A stretch of DNA of 32,000 nucleotides from the NCBI RefSeq assembly GCF_007748075.1, contig NZ_CP036280.1, forward strand, positions 1,470,001-1,502,000. Direction: 5' to 3'. The notes under the pieces are model-generated. The model ran no database searches. It worked only from the letters and a program-made list of their open reading frames with translations, and was not told the origin of the DNA. The translations under genes and the position numbers were made by a program. Positions 1,892-12,543 of this stretch are shown here, piece by piece. The first letter of the stretch is position 1, and every line of letters begins with the position of its first letter. Source of the stretch: Mucisphaera calidilacus. GTDB taxonomy: Bacteria; Planctomycetota; Phycisphaerae; Phycisphaerales; Phycisphaeraceae.

Positions 1892-2443
1892 ATGTTCAAG
1901 ACCGCTACTGCTCTTACCGTTGCTCTCGCCGCTTCCACCGCTATGGCTGAAGTGACCGTCGACAAGGCCCCCAACGCCAGCCTCGCCGGCTACACCACCT
2001 ACACCGTGACCGTCACCGGTGCTGACCTCGGCTTCAACGCCGCGACCATCACCCTCGACGCCCCCGCCGGCCTCAACCAGTCCGAAGCTTTTGGTCAGAT
2101 CGGCCTCTTCGCCGACGACGGCCTCTTCGCCTTCGTTCCCTCGACGGTCATCGAAGACACCTACTTCCTCTTCAACCGTCCGGCCCTTCTGGTTGACGGC
2201 TCCTTCGGCGAGTCGGCCACCGGCCTCGAGGCTTCCTTCGCCTACGCCGATCCCATCGCTGCTGACTTCGCCGCGATGCAGGTCGTGATCGAAGACTCCG
2301 CCACCGAAGCTTGGGTCAAGATTGACCTCGCCTACCCCGGCGGCACCGAGATCATCACGGTCTTCAACGAGAACATCATCCCCACCCCCGCCACCGGCGC
2401 CCTCTTCGGCCTCGCCGGCCTGGCCGCCTTCCGTCGTCGCTAA
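1892..2443 (+). CDS. Small secreted PEP-CTERM-anchored protein, paralogue P1 (183 aa)
   Basis: ATG at 1892 preceded by AAGGAG. Signal peptide MFKTATALTVALAASTAMA/E. C-terminal IPTPATGALFGLAGLAAFRRR is a P-x-P motif plus hydrophobic helix plus Arg cluster, i.e. PEP-CTERM type. The track ORF 1835..2443 was trimmed to the internal start shared with the paralogues. Confidence 0.9.
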   Translation: MFKTATALTVALAASTAMAEVTVDKAPNASLAGYTTYTVTVTGADLGFNAATITLDAPAGLNQSEAFGQIGLFADDGLFAFVPSTVIEDTYFLFNRPALLVDGSFGESATGLEASFAYADPIAADFAAMQVVIEDSATEAWVKIDLAYPGGTEIITVFNENIIPTPATGALFGLAGLAAFRRR

Positions 2444-2491
2444 GCGACCCGGAACACTCGTTCTGACCGAGTACAACATCTGATCTTGAGG

Positions 2492-2524
2492 CAGACCCAC
2501 CAAACGGTGGGTCTGTTTCTTTTT
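2492..2524 (+). terminator. Rho-independent terminator after P1
   Basis: Perfect 10-bp stem CAGACCCACC / GGTGGGTCTG with loop AAAC, followed by TTTCTTTTT. Confidence 0.85.
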
Positions 2525-2556
2525 GTGCGAATTACCCTCTATCTGCCCATTCGGAC

Positions 2557-2584
2557 TTGTTCCGGCCTCACGGATGAGTAGAAT
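2557..2584 (+). promoter_or_regulatory. Candidate sigma70-like promoter for paralogue P2 (TTGTTC-16-TAGAAT)
   Basis: TTGTTC at 2557-2562 and TAGAAT at 2579-2584 with a 16-nt spacer, in the AT-richer spacer upstream of ATG 2719. A perfect 10-bp palindrome GACACGTGTC lies at 2639-2648 in the putative leader. Confidence 0.3.
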
Positions 2585-2718
2585 TAGATTAGGTACGGTT
2601 CCTGTATCAGTACTCCGTGCCTTCAGGGTTTTCGCCGAGACACGTGTCACGGTCCCTGGTCATCTGTTATGTGTATTGGCAAGGCCTTGTTTCACAGCAA
2701 TCCCAAAGGAGAATAGAG

Positions 2719-3273
2719 ATGTTCAAGACTGCTGCCGCTCTTACCGTTGCTCTCGCCGCTTCCACCGCCATGGCTCAGGTTGAGGTCTTCTCGGCCCCCA
2801 ACGCCAATCTCGCCGGCTACACCACCTACACCGTCGCCATCGTCGGGCCGAACGATCTCGGCTTCAACGCCGCGACCGTCACCCTCGACGCCCCCGCCGG
2901 CCTCAACCAGTCCGAAGCTTTCGGTCAGATCGGCCTCTTCGCCGACGACGGCCTCTTCGCCTTCGTTCCCTCGACGGTCATCGAAGACACCTACTTCCTC
3001 TTCAACCGTCCGGCCCTCTTGGTTGACGGCTCCTTCGGCGAGTCGGCCACCGGCCTCGAGGCTTCCTTCGCCTACGCCGACCCCATCGTCGGTGCCTACA
3101 ACGTCATGCAGGTCGTGATCGAAGACTCCGCCACCGAAGCCTGGGTCAAGATTGACCTCGCCTACCCCGGCGGCACCGAGATCATCACGGTCTTCAACGA
3201 GAACATCATCCCCACCCCCGCCACCGGCGCCCTCTTCGGCCTCGCCGGCCTGGCCGCCTTCCGTCGTCGCTAA
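2719..3273 (+). CDS. Small secreted PEP-CTERM-anchored protein, paralogue P2 (184 aa)
   Basis: ATG at 2719 preceded by AAGGAG. Near-identical to P1 except for two short patches. Same signal peptide and the same IPTPATGALFGLAGLAAFRRR tail. Confidence 0.9.
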   Translation: MFKTAAALTVALAASTAMAQVEVFSAPNANLAGYTTYTVAIVGPNDLGFNAATVTLDAPAGLNQSEAFGQIGLFADDGLFAFVPSTVIEDTYFLFNRPALLVDGSFGESATGLEASFAYADPIVGAYNVMQVVIEDSATEAWVKIDLAYPGGTEIITVFNENIIPTPATGALFGLAGLAAFRRR

Positions 3274-3321
3274 GCGACCCGGAACACTCGTTCTGACCGA
3301 GTACAACATCTGATCTTGAGG

Positions 3322-3354
3322 CAGACCCACCAAACGGTGGGTCTGTTTCTTTTT
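3322..3354 (+). terminator. Rho-independent terminator after P2 (exact copy of the P1 terminator)
   Basis: Same CAGACCCACC-AAAC-GGTGGGTCTG hairpin plus T-run, lying within the 247-nt block 3111-3357 that matches 2281-2527 with 1 mismatch. Confidence 0.85.
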
Positions 3355-3386
3355 GTGTTAAAACCGTTTCAGGCTCTGCTTGATGC

Positions 3387-3414
3387 TTGTGTCGGCTCCA
3401 TGCGCAGGTACACT
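3387..3414 (+). promoter_or_regulatory. Weak candidate promoter for the stump-P3-P4-P5 transcription unit (TTGTGT-16-TACACT)
   Basis: Hexamers at 3387-3392 and 3409-3414 with a 16-nt spacer. Only a moderate match to consensus. Confidence 0.2.
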
Positions 3415-3436
3415 AAATAAACGATCTGGGGATCTT

Positions 3437-3505
3437 GTGATGATTGAACCCGCATCCGGCGCCCTCCTCGGCCTCGCCGGCCTGACCCTCCTGCGTCGAC
3501 GTTAA
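3437..3505 (+). pseudogene. 5'-truncated remnant of a paralogue, retaining only the PEP-CTERM tail
   Basis: Reads (V)MIEPASGALLGLAGLTLLRRR-stop. It is followed by the same spacer (GAACCC..CTTTGGAGAAACACC-ATG) that separates P3/P4/P5. No signal peptide or core domain lies upstream. Confidence 0.75.
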
Positions 3506-3532
3506 GAACCCTAGCTTCTTTGGAGAAACACC

Positions 3533-4111
3533 ATGTTTAAAACCACCGCCGCCGCCCTCACCGTTGCTTGCTGCCTGACCTCAGCAGAGGCTGAGTACAC
3601 ACACCCGGATGTGGTCCAGCAATGGATGCCCGCACCCACACTGCCCGGCTACATCACCTACACCGCCTACCTCAGGGGCAGTCTACTCGGCTTCAACGCT
3701 GCCACGATCACAATTCAGGACGAGGCGGGTGTTATGAATCAGGTCGAAGCCTTCGGTCAGAAGGGCCTTTTCGCCGATGACGGCATCTTCGCCTTCGTCC
3801 CCTCGACGGTCATCGAAGACACCTACTTCCTGTTCGACCGTCCGGCGTTGTTGGTTGACGGCTCCTTCGGCGAGTACGCCACCGGCATGGAGGCCTCCTT
3901 CGCCTACGCCGAGCCCGTCACCACGGAGTTCGGCGTGATCCAGATCCTGGTCGCCTACGATGCCACGCAGATACCCTGGATGACCATCGAACTCGCCTAC
4001 CCCGGCGGCTCCGAGATCGTCACTGCCTACGACGCTCCGATCGGGAGGCCCGAGCCCGCCTCCGGCGCCCTCTTCGGCGTCGCCGGCCTGGCCCTCCTGC
4101 GTCGACGTTAA
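3533..4111 (+). CDS. Small secreted PEP-CTERM-anchored protein, paralogue P3 (192 aa)
   Basis: ATG preceded by GGAG. Signal peptide MFKTTAAALTVACCLTSAEA/E. Conserved core GLFADDGIFAFVPSTVIEDTYFLFDRPALLVDGSFGE. Tail RPEPASGALFGVAGLALLRRR. Confidence 0.9.
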   Translation: MFKTTAAALTVACCLTSAEAEYTHPDVVQQWMPAPTLPGYITYTAYLRGSLLGFNAATITIQDEAGVMNQVEAFGQKGLFADDGIFAFVPSTVIEDTYFLFDRPALLVDGSFGEYATGMEASFAYAEPVTTEFGVIQILVAYDATQIPWMTIELAYPGGSEIVTAYDAPIGRPEPASGALFGVAGLALLRRR

Positions 4112-4139
4112 GAACCCCCAACCTCTTTGGAGAAACACC

Positions 4140-4721
4140 ATGCTTAAAACCACCGCCGCCGCCCTTGCCGTTGTTTGCTGCCTGACCTCAGCAGAGGCTG
4201 AGTACACACACCCGGATGTGGTCCAGCAATGGATGCCCGCACCCACACTGCCCGGCTACATCACCTACACCGCCTACCTCAGGGGCAGTCTACTCGGCTT
4301 CAACGCTGCCACGATCACAATTCAGGACGAGGCGGGTGTTATGAATCAGGTCGAAGCCTTCGGTCAGAAGGGCCTTTTCGCCGATGACGGCATCTTCGCC
4401 TTCGTCCCCTCGACGGTCATCGAAGACACCTACTTCCTGTTCGACCGTCCGGCGTTGTTGGTTGACGGCTCCTTCGGCGAGTCCGCCACCGGCATCGAAG
4501 CCTCCTTCGCCTACGCCGACCCCGTCACCACCGACTTCGACGTGATCCAGATCGTACTCAGCGACATCAATACGTTCCCCGCCCCCTGGATGACCATCGA
4601 ACTCGCCTACCCCGGCGGCACCGAGATCATTACCGCGTTTGACGCCCCGCTCTGGGTCCCCACACCCGCCTCCGGCGCCCTCTTCGGCCTCGCCGGCCTG
4701 GCCCTCCTGCGTCGACGTTAA
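4140..4721 (+). CDS. Small secreted PEP-CTERM-anchored protein, paralogue P4 (193 aa), chimera of P3 and P5
   Basis: 4175-4482 is identical to P3 3568-3875 (308 nt). 4112-4189 is identical to 4722-4799, and 4440-4682 is identical to P5 5059-5301 (243 nt). Tail VPTPASGALFGLAGLALLRRR. Confidence 0.9.
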   Translation: MLKTTAAALAVVCCLTSAEAEYTHPDVVQQWMPAPTLPGYITYTAYLRGSLLGFNAATITIQDEAGVMNQVEAFGQKGLFADDGIFAFVPSTVIEDTYFLFDRPALLVDGSFGESATGIEASFAYADPVTTDFDVIQIVLSDINTFPAPWMTIELAYPGGTEIITAFDAPLWVPTPASGALFGLAGLALLRRR

Positions 4722-4749
4722 GAACCCCCAACCTCTTTGGAGAAACACC

Positions 4750-5340
4750 ATGCTTAAAACCACCGCCGCCGCCCTTGCCGTTGTTTGCTGCCTGACCTCT
4801 GCGCAGGCCGTCATTATGCATCCCGATGTTGACCTGGGTTCCGTCGAGGACACCCCCAATCTTCCCGGCTACACCACCGCGACCTACTACATCACGGGCG
4901 AACTCCTCGGCTTCAACGCCGCCACCATCATCCTCGACGGCACGAATTACCCGGGCGAGTTCAACCAGGTCGAGATGTTCGGTCAGAAGGGCCTCTTCGC
5001 CGACGACGGCCTCTTCGCCTTCGTCCCCACCGCCGCCGCCGAGGACACCTACTTCCTCTTCGACCGTCCGGCGTTGTTGGTTGACGGCTCCTTCGGCGAG
5101 TCCGCCACCGGCATCGAAGCCTCCTTCGCCTACGCCGACCCCGTCACCACCGACTTCGACGTGATCCAGATCGTACTCAGCGACATCAATACGTTCCCCG
5201 CCCCCTGGATGACCATCGAACTCGCCTACCCCGGCGGCACCGAGATCATTACCGCGTTTGACGCCCCGCTCTGGGTCCCCACACCCGCCTCCGGCGCCCT
5301 CCTCGGCGTCGCCGGCCTGGCCTTCCTGCGTCGACGATAA
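4750..5340 (+). CDS. Small secreted PEP-CTERM-anchored protein, paralogue P5 (196 aa)
   Basis: Internal ATG at 4750 of track ORF 4639..5340, with the same spacer/GGAG and leader as P4. Distinct N-terminal variable segment. Tail VPTPASGALLGVAGLAFLRRR. Confidence 0.9.
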   Translation: MLKTTAAALAVVCCLTSAQAVIMHPDVDLGSVEDTPNLPGYTTATYYITGELLGFNAATIILDGTNYPGEFNQVEMFGQKGLFADDGLFAFVPTAAAEDTYFLFDRPALLVDGSFGESATGIEASFAYADPVTTDFDVIQIVLSDINTFPAPWMTIELAYPGGTEIITAFDAPLWVPTPASGALLGVAGLAFLRRR

Positions 5341-5369: not shown

Positions 5370-5394
5370 AGCCCGCCCGCATGGCGGGCTTTTT
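5370..5394 (+). terminator. Rho-independent terminator after P5
   Basis: AGCCCGCC-CGCAT-GGCGGGCT hairpin followed by a T-run. Confidence 0.8.
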
Positions 5395-5454: not shown

Positions 5455-7179
5455 ATGAAGAACGCCTCGCCAATGAATCGCTCCGGCTTGCCCACCTTAA
5501 CCAGCCTGACACTATGCCTCGCCGGCGTCTCCGCCGTGCAGGCCCTTGAGATCGATGGCGTCCAGAACGCGGCCCTCGATCAGCCGCAGATCAACGCCGC
5601 CATCCGTCTCCCGGGCACCACCCAGCCGGTGACCGGGCTCGCCGAGGACCTGTTCGGCAACATCGTCGAGACCTTCAACATCCAGGCCTTCTACGACACC
5701 GGGGCCTCAGGCGTCCTCATGAGCACCCAGACGGCCGACGCGCTGGGCCTCACCCGAGCCCGGTTCGAGGGACAGGACGTCATCTTCGAAGACGTGGGCG
5801 TGGGCGGCGCCGACGCCTTCAACGTCTCCGAGCCTCTCATGATCGACCTCGCACCCTTCCCCAGCGTGGCGATCGACGACCCCGCGACCTACGACACCGT
5901 CTACACCCAGCGTTTCGGGCCGGTGCGGATGCAGGTCGGGCCGCTCGGCGGGATCAGCAACCCGCTGCTCCAGGGCCTCGACGTCTTCGGCATGCCACTC
6001 TTCGTCGACAAGTCCGTGCACATGGACGTCAGCCCGACGCACGACCTCTCGGGCAACATCAACACACGCGTCTACAACTATGGCAGCCGGGAGGCGGCCG
6101 CGATCCGCACGCAGCGGACGGTGCAGATGAGCTACGGCGACTTCGCCCGCTTCACCCGCGTCCTGCCCGACGGCGCCCAGGCACCGACGCTCCAGGGCAA
6201 CCCCTTCATCGGCCCCGACCCGGTCGCCGTGCTCAACGGCGACGCCGAGACGACCCAGGACGTGCCCGGAATCACCGTCCGCCACAACGGCCTGAGCCAG
6301 ACCGGCAGCTGGCTCTTCGACACCGGCGCAGCGGCATCCATCTTCTCCGAGGCACGAGCCGCAGAACTCGGCATCACCTACGACCCCGACTCCGAAGCGC
6401 CCGTCCTGCTGGTCGATGGCGTCGAAGCACCCAACCAGTTCCAGCTCTCCATCGGCGGCATCGGCGGGACCACGCAGCTCGCGGGCCTCTACCTCGACGA
6501 ACTCATCGTCCCGACCATCGAAGGCGACGGCGCAAACCCCGACGATCCCAAGCACCTCAAGTTCCTCAACGCCCCCGTCCTCGTCGGCGACATCACCGTC
6601 CTCGACCCCGTCACGCAGGAGTCCCTGACACTCGACGGCGTATTCGGCATGAACTTCCTCGCCGCATCGATCTTCATCACCGAGCCGTTCGGCATCGGCG
6701 ACCTGCGCGCCGGCGCTTTCAACGACCTCGTCTTCGATCACCCCACCGGCCAGCTGCGCATGCGCTTCAACCCCGACGTCGCGACCTTCGGCGACGTCAA
6801 CGTCGACGGACTGATCGACGCAGAAGACATCGACCTGCTCTTCGAACTGGAGGGCAACACCGACTACCTGGATTTCGCCGACCTCAACAACAGCGGCGCC
6901 GTGGACAACGCGGACGTGACCCTGCTCGTGACGGACGTCCTCAACACCACAGCAGGCGACGCCAACCTCGACGGACAGGTTGACCTACTCGACTTGTCAT
7001 CCCTTGCCGCATCGTTCGACGGCATCGGAGGCTGGTCTGATGGCGACTTCAACGGCGACCAGTGGGTCAACCTGCTCGACCTGAGCCTGCTCGCCACACA
7101 CTTCGAAACATCCAGTATTCCCGAGCCCGCGAGCCTGTTCATGGTTATGGCGGGGCTGCTACGCAGTTGTCGCCGGTGA
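5455..7179 (+). CDS. Secreted tandem retropepsin-like (double DTGA) aspartic protease with dockerin-like repeats and PEP-CTERM anchor (574 aa)
   Basis: Signal peptide ending AVQA/LE. Half 1: FYDTGASGVLMS..ADALGL (D81, nt 5695), GVGG, GLDVFGMPLF. Half 2: LFDTGAAASIFS..AAELGI (D289, nt 6319), GGIGG, LDGVFGMNFL. Four DxNxDGxxDxxD-type repeats span aa 446-550 (nt 6790-7104). Tail IPEPASLFMVMAGLLRSCRR. Confidence 0.85.
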   Translation: MKNASPMNRSGLPTLTSLTLCLAGVSAVQALEIDGVQNAALDQPQINAAIRLPGTTQPVTGLAEDLFGNIVETFNIQAFYDTGASGVLMSTQTADALGLTRARFEGQDVIFEDVGVGGADAFNVSEPLMIDLAPFPSVAIDDPATYDTVYTQRFGPVRMQVGPLGGISNPLLQGLDVFGMPLFVDKSVHMDVSPTHDLSGNINTRVYNYGSREAAAIRTQRTVQMSYGDFARFTRVLPDGAQAPTLQGNPFIGPDPVAVLNGDAETTQDVPGITVRHNGLSQTGSWLFDTGAAASIFSEARAAELGITYDPDSEAPVLLVDGVEAPNQFQLSIGGIGGTTQLAGLYLDELIVPTIEGDGANPDDPKHLKFLNAPVLVGDITVLDPVTQESLTLDGVFGMNFLAASIFITEPFGIGDLRAGAFNDLVFDHPTGQLRMRFNPDVATFGDVNVDGLIDAEDIDLLFELEGNTDYLDFADLNNSGAVDNADVTLLVTDVLNTTAGDANLDGQVDLLDLSSLAASFDGIGGWSDGDFNGDQWVNLLDLSLLATHFETSSIPEPASLFMVMAGLLRSCRR

Positions 7180-11464: not shown

Positions 11465-11643
11465 CGCTCCCGCTACAGGGGCATGCCGCCGCCGAGGTCC
11501 GATACCTCGGGTGACCCGATCGACTTACCCGAATCCGCACAAAGCCACCAAAGCCGATGGGGATTCCGGACGAAGGCCCTTCTATGCCGGCGGCCGCGTC
11601 GCCGCCTGTGCCCCTGACGCACGCCCGGTCGGGAGATGGCCCC

Positions 11644-12543
11644 ATGGATGGCAGCTCGGTCTGGTTTCTCGCAATCCTGATTCTGTCCGTCGCCACCTGG
11701 TTCCTGGGCGTTCAGATCGCTCGAAAACGCCCCGACATCTCAGACGCCCTCATCATCGGCGGACTGGTCGGCCTCGGGGTCTGGGCCTGGCTCATGCACC
11801 GCCCCGACGTCGGCACCCAGCTGATCCCGACACGCGTGCTCGCCTATCTGGAAGGCGTCGGCAGCGTACCGCTCTTCATGCTCCTGGTCGGCGCTGCCTT
11901 CGGACGCTCCCGCAGCACCCGCGAGGGCGGTTTCACAGCCATGGCAGGCATGCTCGGGATGGTCTACCTCTTCTACGGAGGCTGGTGGATGCTCCAGAGC
12001 ACCCCGGCACACGCCTTCGGCGGACAGAGCCGCACACCCGCCGTCATGCAGACACACGATTACAGCTGCGTCGCCGCTTCATGCACCACCACCCTGCGAC
12101 TCGTAGGCATACAGACCTCCGAAGCAGAGATGGCCGAACTGACCATGACCCGGCCCGGCAGCGGATCCACCCTCATCCGCGCCGCACACGCCATGTCCCG
12201 AAAAATGGGCGACCAGGCCGAGGTCGCCATCGTCGAGATGCCCTACGAGCACCTCGACACCATGCCCATGCCCGCCATGACGCCACTCCGCTTCGAGTCC
12301 TCGCGCTACCACATGGTCACCCTGCTCCGTGTCGGCGATAGGGGGGTCTGGCTGCTCGACCCCGTCGACGGACTGGTCTACATGGCCGAACCCACCTTCC
12401 GAGGGGTCTACCAGCGCCGCCTGCTCATCCTCGGACCCGCCTCACCCACCATGCTGGCCCGCGCCGACGCGAAGATCGACCGCCTCCTGAGGATGGTCCA
12501 CGCCCTGCGACGCGACACCCTCGCACAAAAGACCGGCACCTGA
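11644..12543 (+). CDS. Membrane protein with four predicted N-terminal TM helices fused to a C39-like cysteine peptidase domain
   Basis: C39-type motifs are Q165-x5-C171 (QTHDYSCVAASC, Cys codon 12067-12069), H252 in YHMVTLL (12310-12312) and LLDPVDG. Hydrophobic segments lie upstream. Residues are numbered from ATG 11557. Start at ATG 11644 is preferred (GGGAGA 7 nt upstream, atypical codon bias upstream of it); 11557 and 11584 are alternatives. Confidence 0.7.
   Translation: MDGSSVWFLAILILSVATWFLGVQIARKRPDISDALIIGGLVGLGVWAWLMHRPDVGTQLIPTRVLAYLEGVGSVPLFMLLVGAAFGRSRSTREGGFTAMAGMLGMVYLFYGGWWMLQSTPAHAFGGQSRTPAVMQTHDYSCVAASCTTTLRLVGIQTSEAEMAELTMTRPGSGSTLIRAAHAMSRKMGDQAEVAIVEMPYEHLDTMPMPAMTPLRFESSRYHMVTLLRVGDRGVWLLDPVDGLVYMAEPTFRGVYQRRLLILGPASPTMLARADAKIDRLLRMVHALRRDTLAQKTGT

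Follow-up and report, generated by a model that had tools for sequence, protein, structure and literature searches.

The gene at positions 5455 to 7179 on the + strand of a 32,000-nucleotide (nt) window of Mucisphaera calidilacus DNA (Planctomycetota, Phycisphaerae; contig NZ_CP036280.1, positions 1,470,001 to 1,502,000; positions below refer to this window) encodes a predicted aspartic protease in which the retropepsin motif DTGA occurs twice in one chain. The locus therefore raises two questions, namely whether the two halves form a natural single-chain counterpart of the retropepsin homodimers, and whether the enzyme serves the five surface-protein genes (cassettes) located immediately upstream. 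Regarding the first, it is likely that the gene product is an exported, monomeric clan AA aspartic endopeptidase containing two diverged retropepsin-type domains. Regarding the second, adjacency to the cassettes was limited to the Mucisphaera group and a dedicated pairing was not supported. The gene, its motifs and their conservation, the retropepsin-type sequence membership, the modular tails, and a predicted two-lobed fold are shown here, whereas the activity of the enzyme, its pH optimum and substrates, the geometry of the dyad, processing by an exosortase, and the final location are properties that we infer, and they are worded conditionally below.

The open reading frame (ORF) starts with ATG, codes for 574 residues, and is a real gene. 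Its product is 100% identical to an M. calidilacus protein present in NCBI and UniRef and named only 'aspartyl protease family protein'. The NCBI record begins 11 codons downstream, at TTG 5488, and is accordingly 563 residues in length. The ATG at 5455 provides a signal peptide whose n-region is basic (MKNASPMNRSG...), and orthologues of 574 and 584 residues align from this first methionine. A preliminary description of the locus, made from the letters alone, had proposed a 574-residue product carrying a signal peptide and a pair of half-domains of the retropepsin type, both harboring a complete motif set. The ORF, the motifs, and the Pfam matches all agree with this proposal. The motifs are DTGA (residues 81-84 and 289-292), the Gly-rich DVGVGG (113-118) and IGGIGG (333-338), and the psi-loop motifs DVFGMP (176-181) and DGVFGMN (394-400), in which VFG occupies residues 177-179 and 396-398. 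The parts of the gene are as follows.

5455..7179, + strand: whole gene, double-retropepsin protease precursor, stop codon included (ORF, homology, direct reading)
5455..5544, + strand: signal peptide, residues 1-30, predicted cleavage between AVQA and LE (helix 13-25 with a low predicted local distance difference test score, pLDDT; family median leader of 27 residues)
5545..6159, + strand: N-terminal lobe with the beginning of the structured segment between the lobes, residues 31-235 (Pfam, AlphaFold2)
5695..5706, + strand: catalytic motif 1, D81-T82-G83-A84 (alignment, direct reading)
5791..5808, + strand: tip of flap 1, DVGVGG, residues 113-118, turn of hairpin 110-125 (AlphaFold2, alignment)
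5980..5997, + strand: psi-loop hydrophobic-hydrophobic-Gly motif 1, DVFGMP, residues 176-181 (alignment; motif definition from PMC2761423)
6160..6777, + strand: C-terminal lobe, residues 236-441 (Asp_protease_2 at 30.4 bits; AlphaFold2)
6199..6222, + strand: inter-lobe motif NPFIGPDP, residues 249-256 (family-invariant in the alignment)
6319..6330, + strand: catalytic motif 2, D289-T290-G291-A292 (alignment, direct reading)
6451..6468, + strand: tip of flap 2, IGGIGG, residues 333-338, turn of hairpin 329-352 (AlphaFold2, alignment)
6634..6654, + strand: psi-loop motif 2, DGVFGMN, residues 394-400 (alignment, direct reading)
6793..7092, + strand: four dockerin-type Ca-binding repeats of loop and helix, amounting to two dockerin-like modules, residues 447-546 (Pfam, PDB matches, direct reading)
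7114..7176, + strand: PEP-CTERM-type sorting tail with IPEP, hydrophobic helix, and RSCRR (motif; Pfam score below the cut-off; tail shared by about half of the family)

Two matches per chain, as anticipated in the preliminary description, were obtained with the Pfam models Asp_protease_2 (PF13650; 46.4 bits for the whole protease, cut-off 24.3) and gag-asp_proteas (PF13975; 41.9 bits, cut-off 28.2), whereas TIGR02281 (clan_AA_DTGA) matched a single stretch, residues 71-105, at 26 bits, below the NCBIfam cut-off of 57.95. Both PF13650 and PF13975 matched 17 of 17 core sequences of the family, and some of these cores were also matched by RVP and RVP_2. The pepsin model PF00026 matched none of the 17 cores (E<=0.01), and neither PF00026 nor TAXi matched the protease at E<=1. 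Cysteine is confined to the signal peptide and the tail, leaving a core devoid of this residue. No propeptide is present, as the conserved core starts straight after the signal peptide; in the family consensus, AxA directly precedes the core, as it does at the predicted cleavage site of the protease. Its sequence places the protease among the retropepsin-like members of clan AA rather than in the pepsin family A1 or in TIGR02281. Among the Pfam and NCBIfam models scanned, none covers the 411-residue core as a unit.

The fused form is widespread. A word-indexed search detected at least 457 relatives, and the alignments covered approximately 70-75% of the query, corresponding to the core without the tail. 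The best 120 homologues all had E<1e-90, far beyond chance. HMMER searches with the 411-residue core against 1.84 billion cluster representatives (clusters at 50% identity) returned 579 clusters at E<=1e-3 and 237 at E<=1e-30, the former number being a lower bound for the size of the family. Since nearly all of the 579 clusters align over the full core, end to end, the fused form represents a stable family rather than an isolated fusion. When GTDB species were scanned, each represented by one genome, 63 loci were identified, almost all of them in Planctomycetota, where they are found in Tepidisphaeraceae, other Phycisphaerae, Pirellulales, and Planctomycetia. A few members are located on short contigs of metagenome-assembled genomes (MAGs) labelled Bacillota, Nitrospiraceae, Gammaproteobacteria, and Marinobacterium (L010, L011, L014, and L064); these could result from mis-binning or from horizontal transfer out of Planctomycetota.

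Residue conservation was counted over 254 homologues. D81 was present in 252 sequences, the remaining two being gapped at this position, and D289 in all 254. The T/S and G residues of both triads and the flap glycines G115, G118, G335, G337, and G338 were near-invariant, as were the psi-loop glycines G179 (254/254) and G398 (239/254). Given that the two DTG triads do not vary within the family, neither half is degenerate, a point on which the preliminary description had staked the two-lobe proposal. Within the inter-lobe segment, NPFIGP(N/D)P equals the catalytic triads in its degree of conservation (N249 in 247, P250 in 252, and G253 in 253 of the 254 sequences).

Comparison of the two halves with each other gave 32% identity over 47 residues by BLASTP (E of 0.013) and 46 aligned columns by profile-profile alignment with hhalign (probability of 66%, E of 5e-5). 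Sequence support for a duplication is therefore restricted to the active-site loop, a pattern of resemblance also described for the two lobes of pepsin by Rawlings and Bateman (PMC2761423). The limitation of the likeness to 46-47 residues around DTGA indicates that the fusion is old. A literature search for natural tandem or fused bacterial retropepsins found no description of a double-retropepsin chain or of this protease family. Computational support is good for a large, uncurated, mostly PEP-CTERM-tailed family of natural single-chain retropepsin pseudo-dimers in Planctomycetota.

AlphaFold2, run on the protease with a 63-sequence alignment, returned a model with a mean pLDDT of 87.5 and a predicted template modelling score (pTM) of 0.78, most of the core being above 90. 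Both Gly-rich motifs are located at the tips of flap-like beta-hairpins (strands 110-115/118-125 and 329-335/338-352). The first match in a Foldseek search of the PDB was 9iy9 (E of 5.8e-9, 435 columns, template modelling score on the target, TMt, of 0.39), followed by tethered or chemically synthesised covalent dimers of the HIV-1 protease (1hvc, 4qlh, 1lv1, 1g6l, and others), with E of ~2e-8 to 1e-7, ~367 columns, and TMt of 0.62-0.66. The latter values indicate superposition of both lobes, since a single lobe of a two-lobe dimer of 198-203 residues yields at most 0.5. Cathepsin D, pepsin, renin, plasmepsins, and EDGP were matched with TMt of ~0.35-0.45, the matches to the pepsin-family fold reaching E of ~1e-7 to 1e-6. 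The same covalent HIV dimer headed the matches in a viral structure library, in which single lobes were matched by single-domain phage proteins of the 'acid protease' or retropepsin-like type (TMt of 0.56-0.66). In the model, the lobes appear to be arranged roughly as the subunits of a retroviral protease, an arrangement that would bring both aspartates together. The fused retropepsin-like pseudo-dimer of the preliminary description is thus upheld by the retropepsin-type Pfam matches, the invariant DTG triads, and a confident model superposing both lobes on the tethered HIV-1 dimers.

Among solved structures of known nature, the engineered tethered HIV-1 protease dimers (family A2; 1hvc, 1g6l, and 1lv1) superpose best. 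They share with the model two lobes in one chain, a predicted pseudo-twofold packing, a DTGA in each lobe, and a pair of Gly-rich flaps, IGGIGG being found in both proteins. The tethered dimers are artificial and consist of two identical 99-residue halves, whereas the planctomycete protease is natural and has halves of ~200 residues with large insertions, which are ~32% identical over 47 residues and are connected through a structured segment that is conserved. Identity between the planctomycete and HIV proteases is 12-13%. The bacterial single-domain retropepsin-like proteases (Rickettsia APRc, Pseudomonas RloA-C and RimB, and TIGR02281) share the Pfam families and DTGA with the planctomycete enzyme, and some are likewise secreted or surface-exposed. 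In contrast to the latter enzyme, which harbors both lobes in one chain, they have a single domain in each chain and depend on homodimerisation; the characterised enzymes APRc, RloA-C, and RimB all have this single-domain, homodimeric form (PMC4140852, PMC12239564).

Pepsins of family A1, including the bacterial shewasins (PMC2761423), resemble the protease in architecture only, as two-lobed monomers with one aspartate per lobe. They have a single flap containing Tyr75, DTGS or DTGT motifs, disulfides, and a propeptide, whereas the planctomycete protease has two Gly-rich flaps, DTGA in both lobes, and neither disulfides nor a propeptide; PF00026 did not match it, and TMt was ~0.4. Pepsin homologues of bacteria fall within A1 proper, and an intracellular location is predicted for them (PMC2761423). 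The top structural match, 9iy9, is a Bacteroides fragilis 'putative endopeptidase / Exported protein' of 420 residues released on 2025-08-06, which has a length similar to that of the core and is exported. The family profile found 9iy9 weakly around DTGA (FIFDTGAGTSYMS, chain residues 166-206; E of 0.014-0.036); a single DTGA region is detectable from the segment aligned, and identity to the protease is 12%. The aligned fragment of 41 residues retrieved nothing in a homology search, phmmer with either half of the protease did not recover 9iy9, and the literature search found no paper mentioning this entry.

The protease tail was described beforehand as four dockerin-like repeats, and four loops were indeed found at residues 447-462, 476-491, 502-517, and 531-546. 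Dockerin_1 (PF00404) matched three stretches at 32.7-41.3 bits (cut-off of 22.9; 41.3 on the tail alone), and PDB dockerins were matched by the tail with E of 1e-3 to 1e-2. The chain ends with the sorting tail IPEPASLFMVMAGLLRSCRR, in which the PEP motif is followed by a hydrophobic helix and basic terminal residues. Across the family, 130 of the 254 members carry a PEP-CTERM-type tail, about half of them directly after the core, 53 contain at least two dockerin-like loops, and 14 consist of the bare core. Other tails include PF12951 repeats, Big-like or SdrD-like domains, and CFI-box-CTERM, indicating that C-terminal anchors are interchangeable in this family. Since all of these modules are extracytoplasmic or cell-surface modules, a location in the envelope or outside the cell is the natural inference. 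Secreted or surface-exposed bacterial retropepsin-like proteases have precedents in APRc (PMC4140852) and RloA-C (PMC12239564). Surface display via dockerins and a PEP-CTERM tail, as initially proposed, is therefore retained for extracytoplasmic targeting, on the basis of the signal peptide and the family-wide tails, whereas display through the dockerins is overstated and conjectural, the cohesin partner being hypothetical.

If the gene product is the exported two-domain endopeptidase proposed above, removal of the Sec signal peptide would make the conserved core the mature N-terminus, in a protein devoid of a propeptide. The lobes would pack with pseudo-twofold symmetry, as do two retroviral protease subunits, to form a monomeric pseudo-dimer in which D81 and D289 would constitute the catalytic dyad activating a water molecule and the two Gly-rich flaps (113-118 and 333-338) would clamp the substrate. 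Activity at near-neutral pH would be expected from the presence at both sites of DTGA, the form found in retropepsins and renin; for renin and the HIV protease, Ala following DTG has been linked to activity at neutral pH (PMC2761423). The dockerin-like Ca-binding modules and the PEP-CTERM tail would send the enzyme to the envelope or the exterior via an exosortase-type pathway. Its most likely role would be general extracellular or surface proteolysis in a heterotrophic planctomycete, which fits the mutually unrelated neighbourhoods of distant family members better than a dedicated processing enzyme does.

Several observations weigh against this proposal. The Pfam matches span only the 30-60 residues closest to DTGA in each half, and the N-terminal half taken separately scored 21.4 bits with Asp_protease_2, just under the cut-off of 24.3 that the C-terminal half passed (30.4 bits). 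The predicted dyad geometry relies on the superposition with tethered dimers, for which the root-mean-square deviation is ~7 Å. The tail scored 14.8-17.0 bits with PEP-CTERM (PF07589/TIGR02595), below the Pfam cut-off of 20.7, implying that the assignment rests on motif features and not on a passing score, and no exosortase was found among the scanned ORFs of the window. Genomic context in four further loci pointed to no substrate, and peptidase activity is a prediction for every member of the family.

The neighbouring genes that led to the second question are located directly upstream of the protease gene.

1892..5340, + strand: array of five paralogous PEP-CTERM-type cassette genes, context only (ORFs, homology)
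5375..5389, + strand: terminator-like hairpin and T-run between cassette 5 and the protease gene (sequence)

The five tandem paralogues, of ~184-196 residues, have PEP-CTERM-type tails and are 62-91% identical to the first. A terminator had been noted before the protease gene, and a hairpin (GCCCGC-ATG-GCGGGC followed by TTTTT) is present at 5375-5389, 65 nt upstream of the ATG; the whole gap between cassette 5 and this ATG is 114 nt. The claim that protease and cassettes share the same sorting signal holds for the class of tail and not for its details, since four of the five cassettes read PTP instead of PEP and the protease tail is below the Pfam cut-off. The model obtained for cassette 4 (4140-4721) is all-beta, with nine strands in ~150 residues and a low confidence (pLDDT of 63.3 from 7 sequences).

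The array itself shows traces of its history. A sixth copy of the 64-nt segment comprising the cassette tail and the stop codon is found at 3448-3511, between cassette 2, which ends at 3273, and cassette 3, which starts at 3533; it is probably what remains of the 3' end of a cassette gene that was lost. Identical terminator-like hairpins with a 14-bp stem follow cassettes 1 and 2 (2488-2519 and 3318-3349) and are absent after cassettes 3-5, which are spaced by ~610 nt versus ~830 nt. These differences in hairpins and spacing suggest two rounds of tandem duplication.

Linkage of the protease to the cassettes was evaluated by tblastn and hidden Markov model (HMM) searches over 70 fetched loci, including the 63 from the genome scan. 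In Mucisphaera sp. (L001), a cassette homologue of 182 residues is encoded upstream of the protease and one of 304 residues downstream; in a Phycisphaeraceae MAG (L002), a single homologue is encoded upstream. An FHA-domain gene lies between the upstream cassette gene and the protease gene in both relatives (L001 9511-9888 and L002 9591-9968), and the window has no such gene. The 304-residue protein (L001 11978-12892) combines a cassette domain with a dockerin match and has no counterpart in the window. Cassette homologues were absent from ~58 other protease loci according to both methods, and inspection of four further protease contexts revealed unrelated neighbours and no cassette homologue. 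A search of 5.8 billion proteins returned seven members of the cassette family, all from Mucisphaera, to which the copy in the Phycisphaeraceae MAG is added. One additional HMM match (L032) was rejected as an unrelated protein sharing merely the PEP-CTERM tail. A general enrichment of PEP-CTERM genes near the protease was also considered unconvincing, as four of the seven such genes within 2 kb (versus 1-3 per farther 2-kb bin) came from two close relatives.

These data bear on two alternative roles for the locus, both of which involve the cassettes. The functional pairing put forward initially, with the protease processing, shedding, or turning over the adjacent variable surface proteins, could account for the presence of the protease gene next to the cassettes, on the same strand, in all three cassette-bearing genomes and for the common class of sorting tail; a surface-exposed retropepsin-like enzyme, APRc, also processes surface autotransporters in vitro (PMC4140852). 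However, the flanking genes, including those encoding LacI, NuoB-like, metallo-beta-lactamase, and thioesterase proteins, are syntenic among the window and both relatives, so that adjacency is inseparable from shared descent, which would be sufficient to explain it. The contrast between a cassette family of seven proteins and at least 579 protease clusters across Planctomycetota, the intervening terminator in the window, and the FHA-domain gene interposed in both relatives also argue against pairing. No phylogenomic linkage between the two families was found outside the Mucisphaera group, an outcome designated beforehand as refuting the pairing, which we now regard as very improbable. Alternatively, the cassettes could be PEP-CTERM-anchored, cohesin-like beta-sandwiches that bind the dockerins of the protease in a small surface protease complex of the 'planctosome' type, a dockerin-peptidase assembly hypothesised for other Phycisphaerae (PMC6461901). 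The all-beta cassette model has many cohesin modules among its Foldseek matches (2vo8, 2jh2, 2zf9, 2o4e, 4fl4_B, 8ajy, and 2bm3; E of 4e-3 to 3e-2, TMt up to 0.49), two dockerin-bearing proteins flank the cassette genes in Mucisphaera sp., and the cassette homologue P0261 has a dockerin match of its own. This model is nevertheless of low confidence and has no fold match at E<=0.001, nanobodies and other beta-sandwiches score alike, and no cohesin signal was detected by sequence in Pfam or the PDB. Docking would in addition be unneeded for surface retention of a protease with its own PEP-CTERM anchor, and dockerin-bearing family members occur elsewhere without a cassette neighbour. We regard cohesin-type docking as a very improbable explanation of the locus as well.

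The two remaining alternatives concern the protein itself, and both appear highly improbable. The product might lack catalytic activity and act as a two-lobed binding protein, in the manner of the pepsin-fold inhibitors TAXI-I and EDGP, which would be consistent with the presence of EDGP (3vla) among the Foldseek matches and with activity in the family being a prediction only. Such inactive proteins have, however, lost catalytic residues, whereas both DTG triads and the flap and psi-loop glycines are near-invariant in the 254 sequences. The lobes might instead pair between chains, generating domain-swapped oligomers with two or more active sites. The obligate homodimers formed by single-domain bacterial retropepsins (PMC12239564) offer a precedent, and AlphaFold2, used here for a monomer prediction, is compatible with this possibility. 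Nonetheless, the model packs the lobes intramolecularly with confidence (the pTM given above), and a conserved, structured inter-lobe segment combined with strong divergence of the halves fits a fixed pair of heterologous lobes. The exported monomeric endopeptidase with two retropepsin-type domains thus remains the preferred explanation.

Two observations were made elsewhere in the window. The ORF at 11557-12543 encodes a 328-residue protein that begins with hydrophobic segments and contains a Peptidase_C39-like domain (22.6 bits); the synteny of this gene is kept in Mucisphaera sp. GC skew is negative in all 1-kb windows of positions 1-32000 (-0.06 to -0.28), the + strand being C-rich though most long ORFs are on this strand.

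The debate on the origin of pepsins by duplication and fusion has rested on two end states, the homodimeric retropepsins and the diverged two-lobed pepsins (PMC2761423, PMC4140852). The family described here is a widespread natural enzyme resembling the step in between, with one chain, two recognisably retropepsin-type lobes, and two flaps. The preliminary description had termed it an informative intermediate architecture; the fused pseudo-dimer stands, and the term itself is overstated, as nothing shows ancestry to pepsins over a parallel fusion. A bolder scenario, which we offer tentatively and consider rather doubtful, is that the family is an ancient natural retropepsin duplication-fusion that kept two flaps and DTGA twice, without disulfides or a propeptide, and represents a living 'tethered homodimer' stage between homodimeric ancestors and pepsins, the enzyme being perhaps docked in Mucisphaera via its dockerins on cohesin-like cassettes. 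If this were true, the fusion would be either independent of A1, implying that the route is repeatable, or sister to A1, implying a bacterial origin of two-lobed aspartic proteases.

We regard the family as moderately interesting for the evolution of pepsins. It offers a tractable system, with a core devoid of Cys and of a propeptide and a cultured source organism, in which to approach the gain from fusion (asymmetric specificity, stability, or freedom from concentration-dependent dimerisation), the subsequent divergence of the lobes, and the possibility of repeated fusion. Annotations as 'aspartyl protease family protein' conceal a distinct 411-residue family, which would add an uncharacterised class of exported proteases to the surface and secretome toolkit of planctomycetes.

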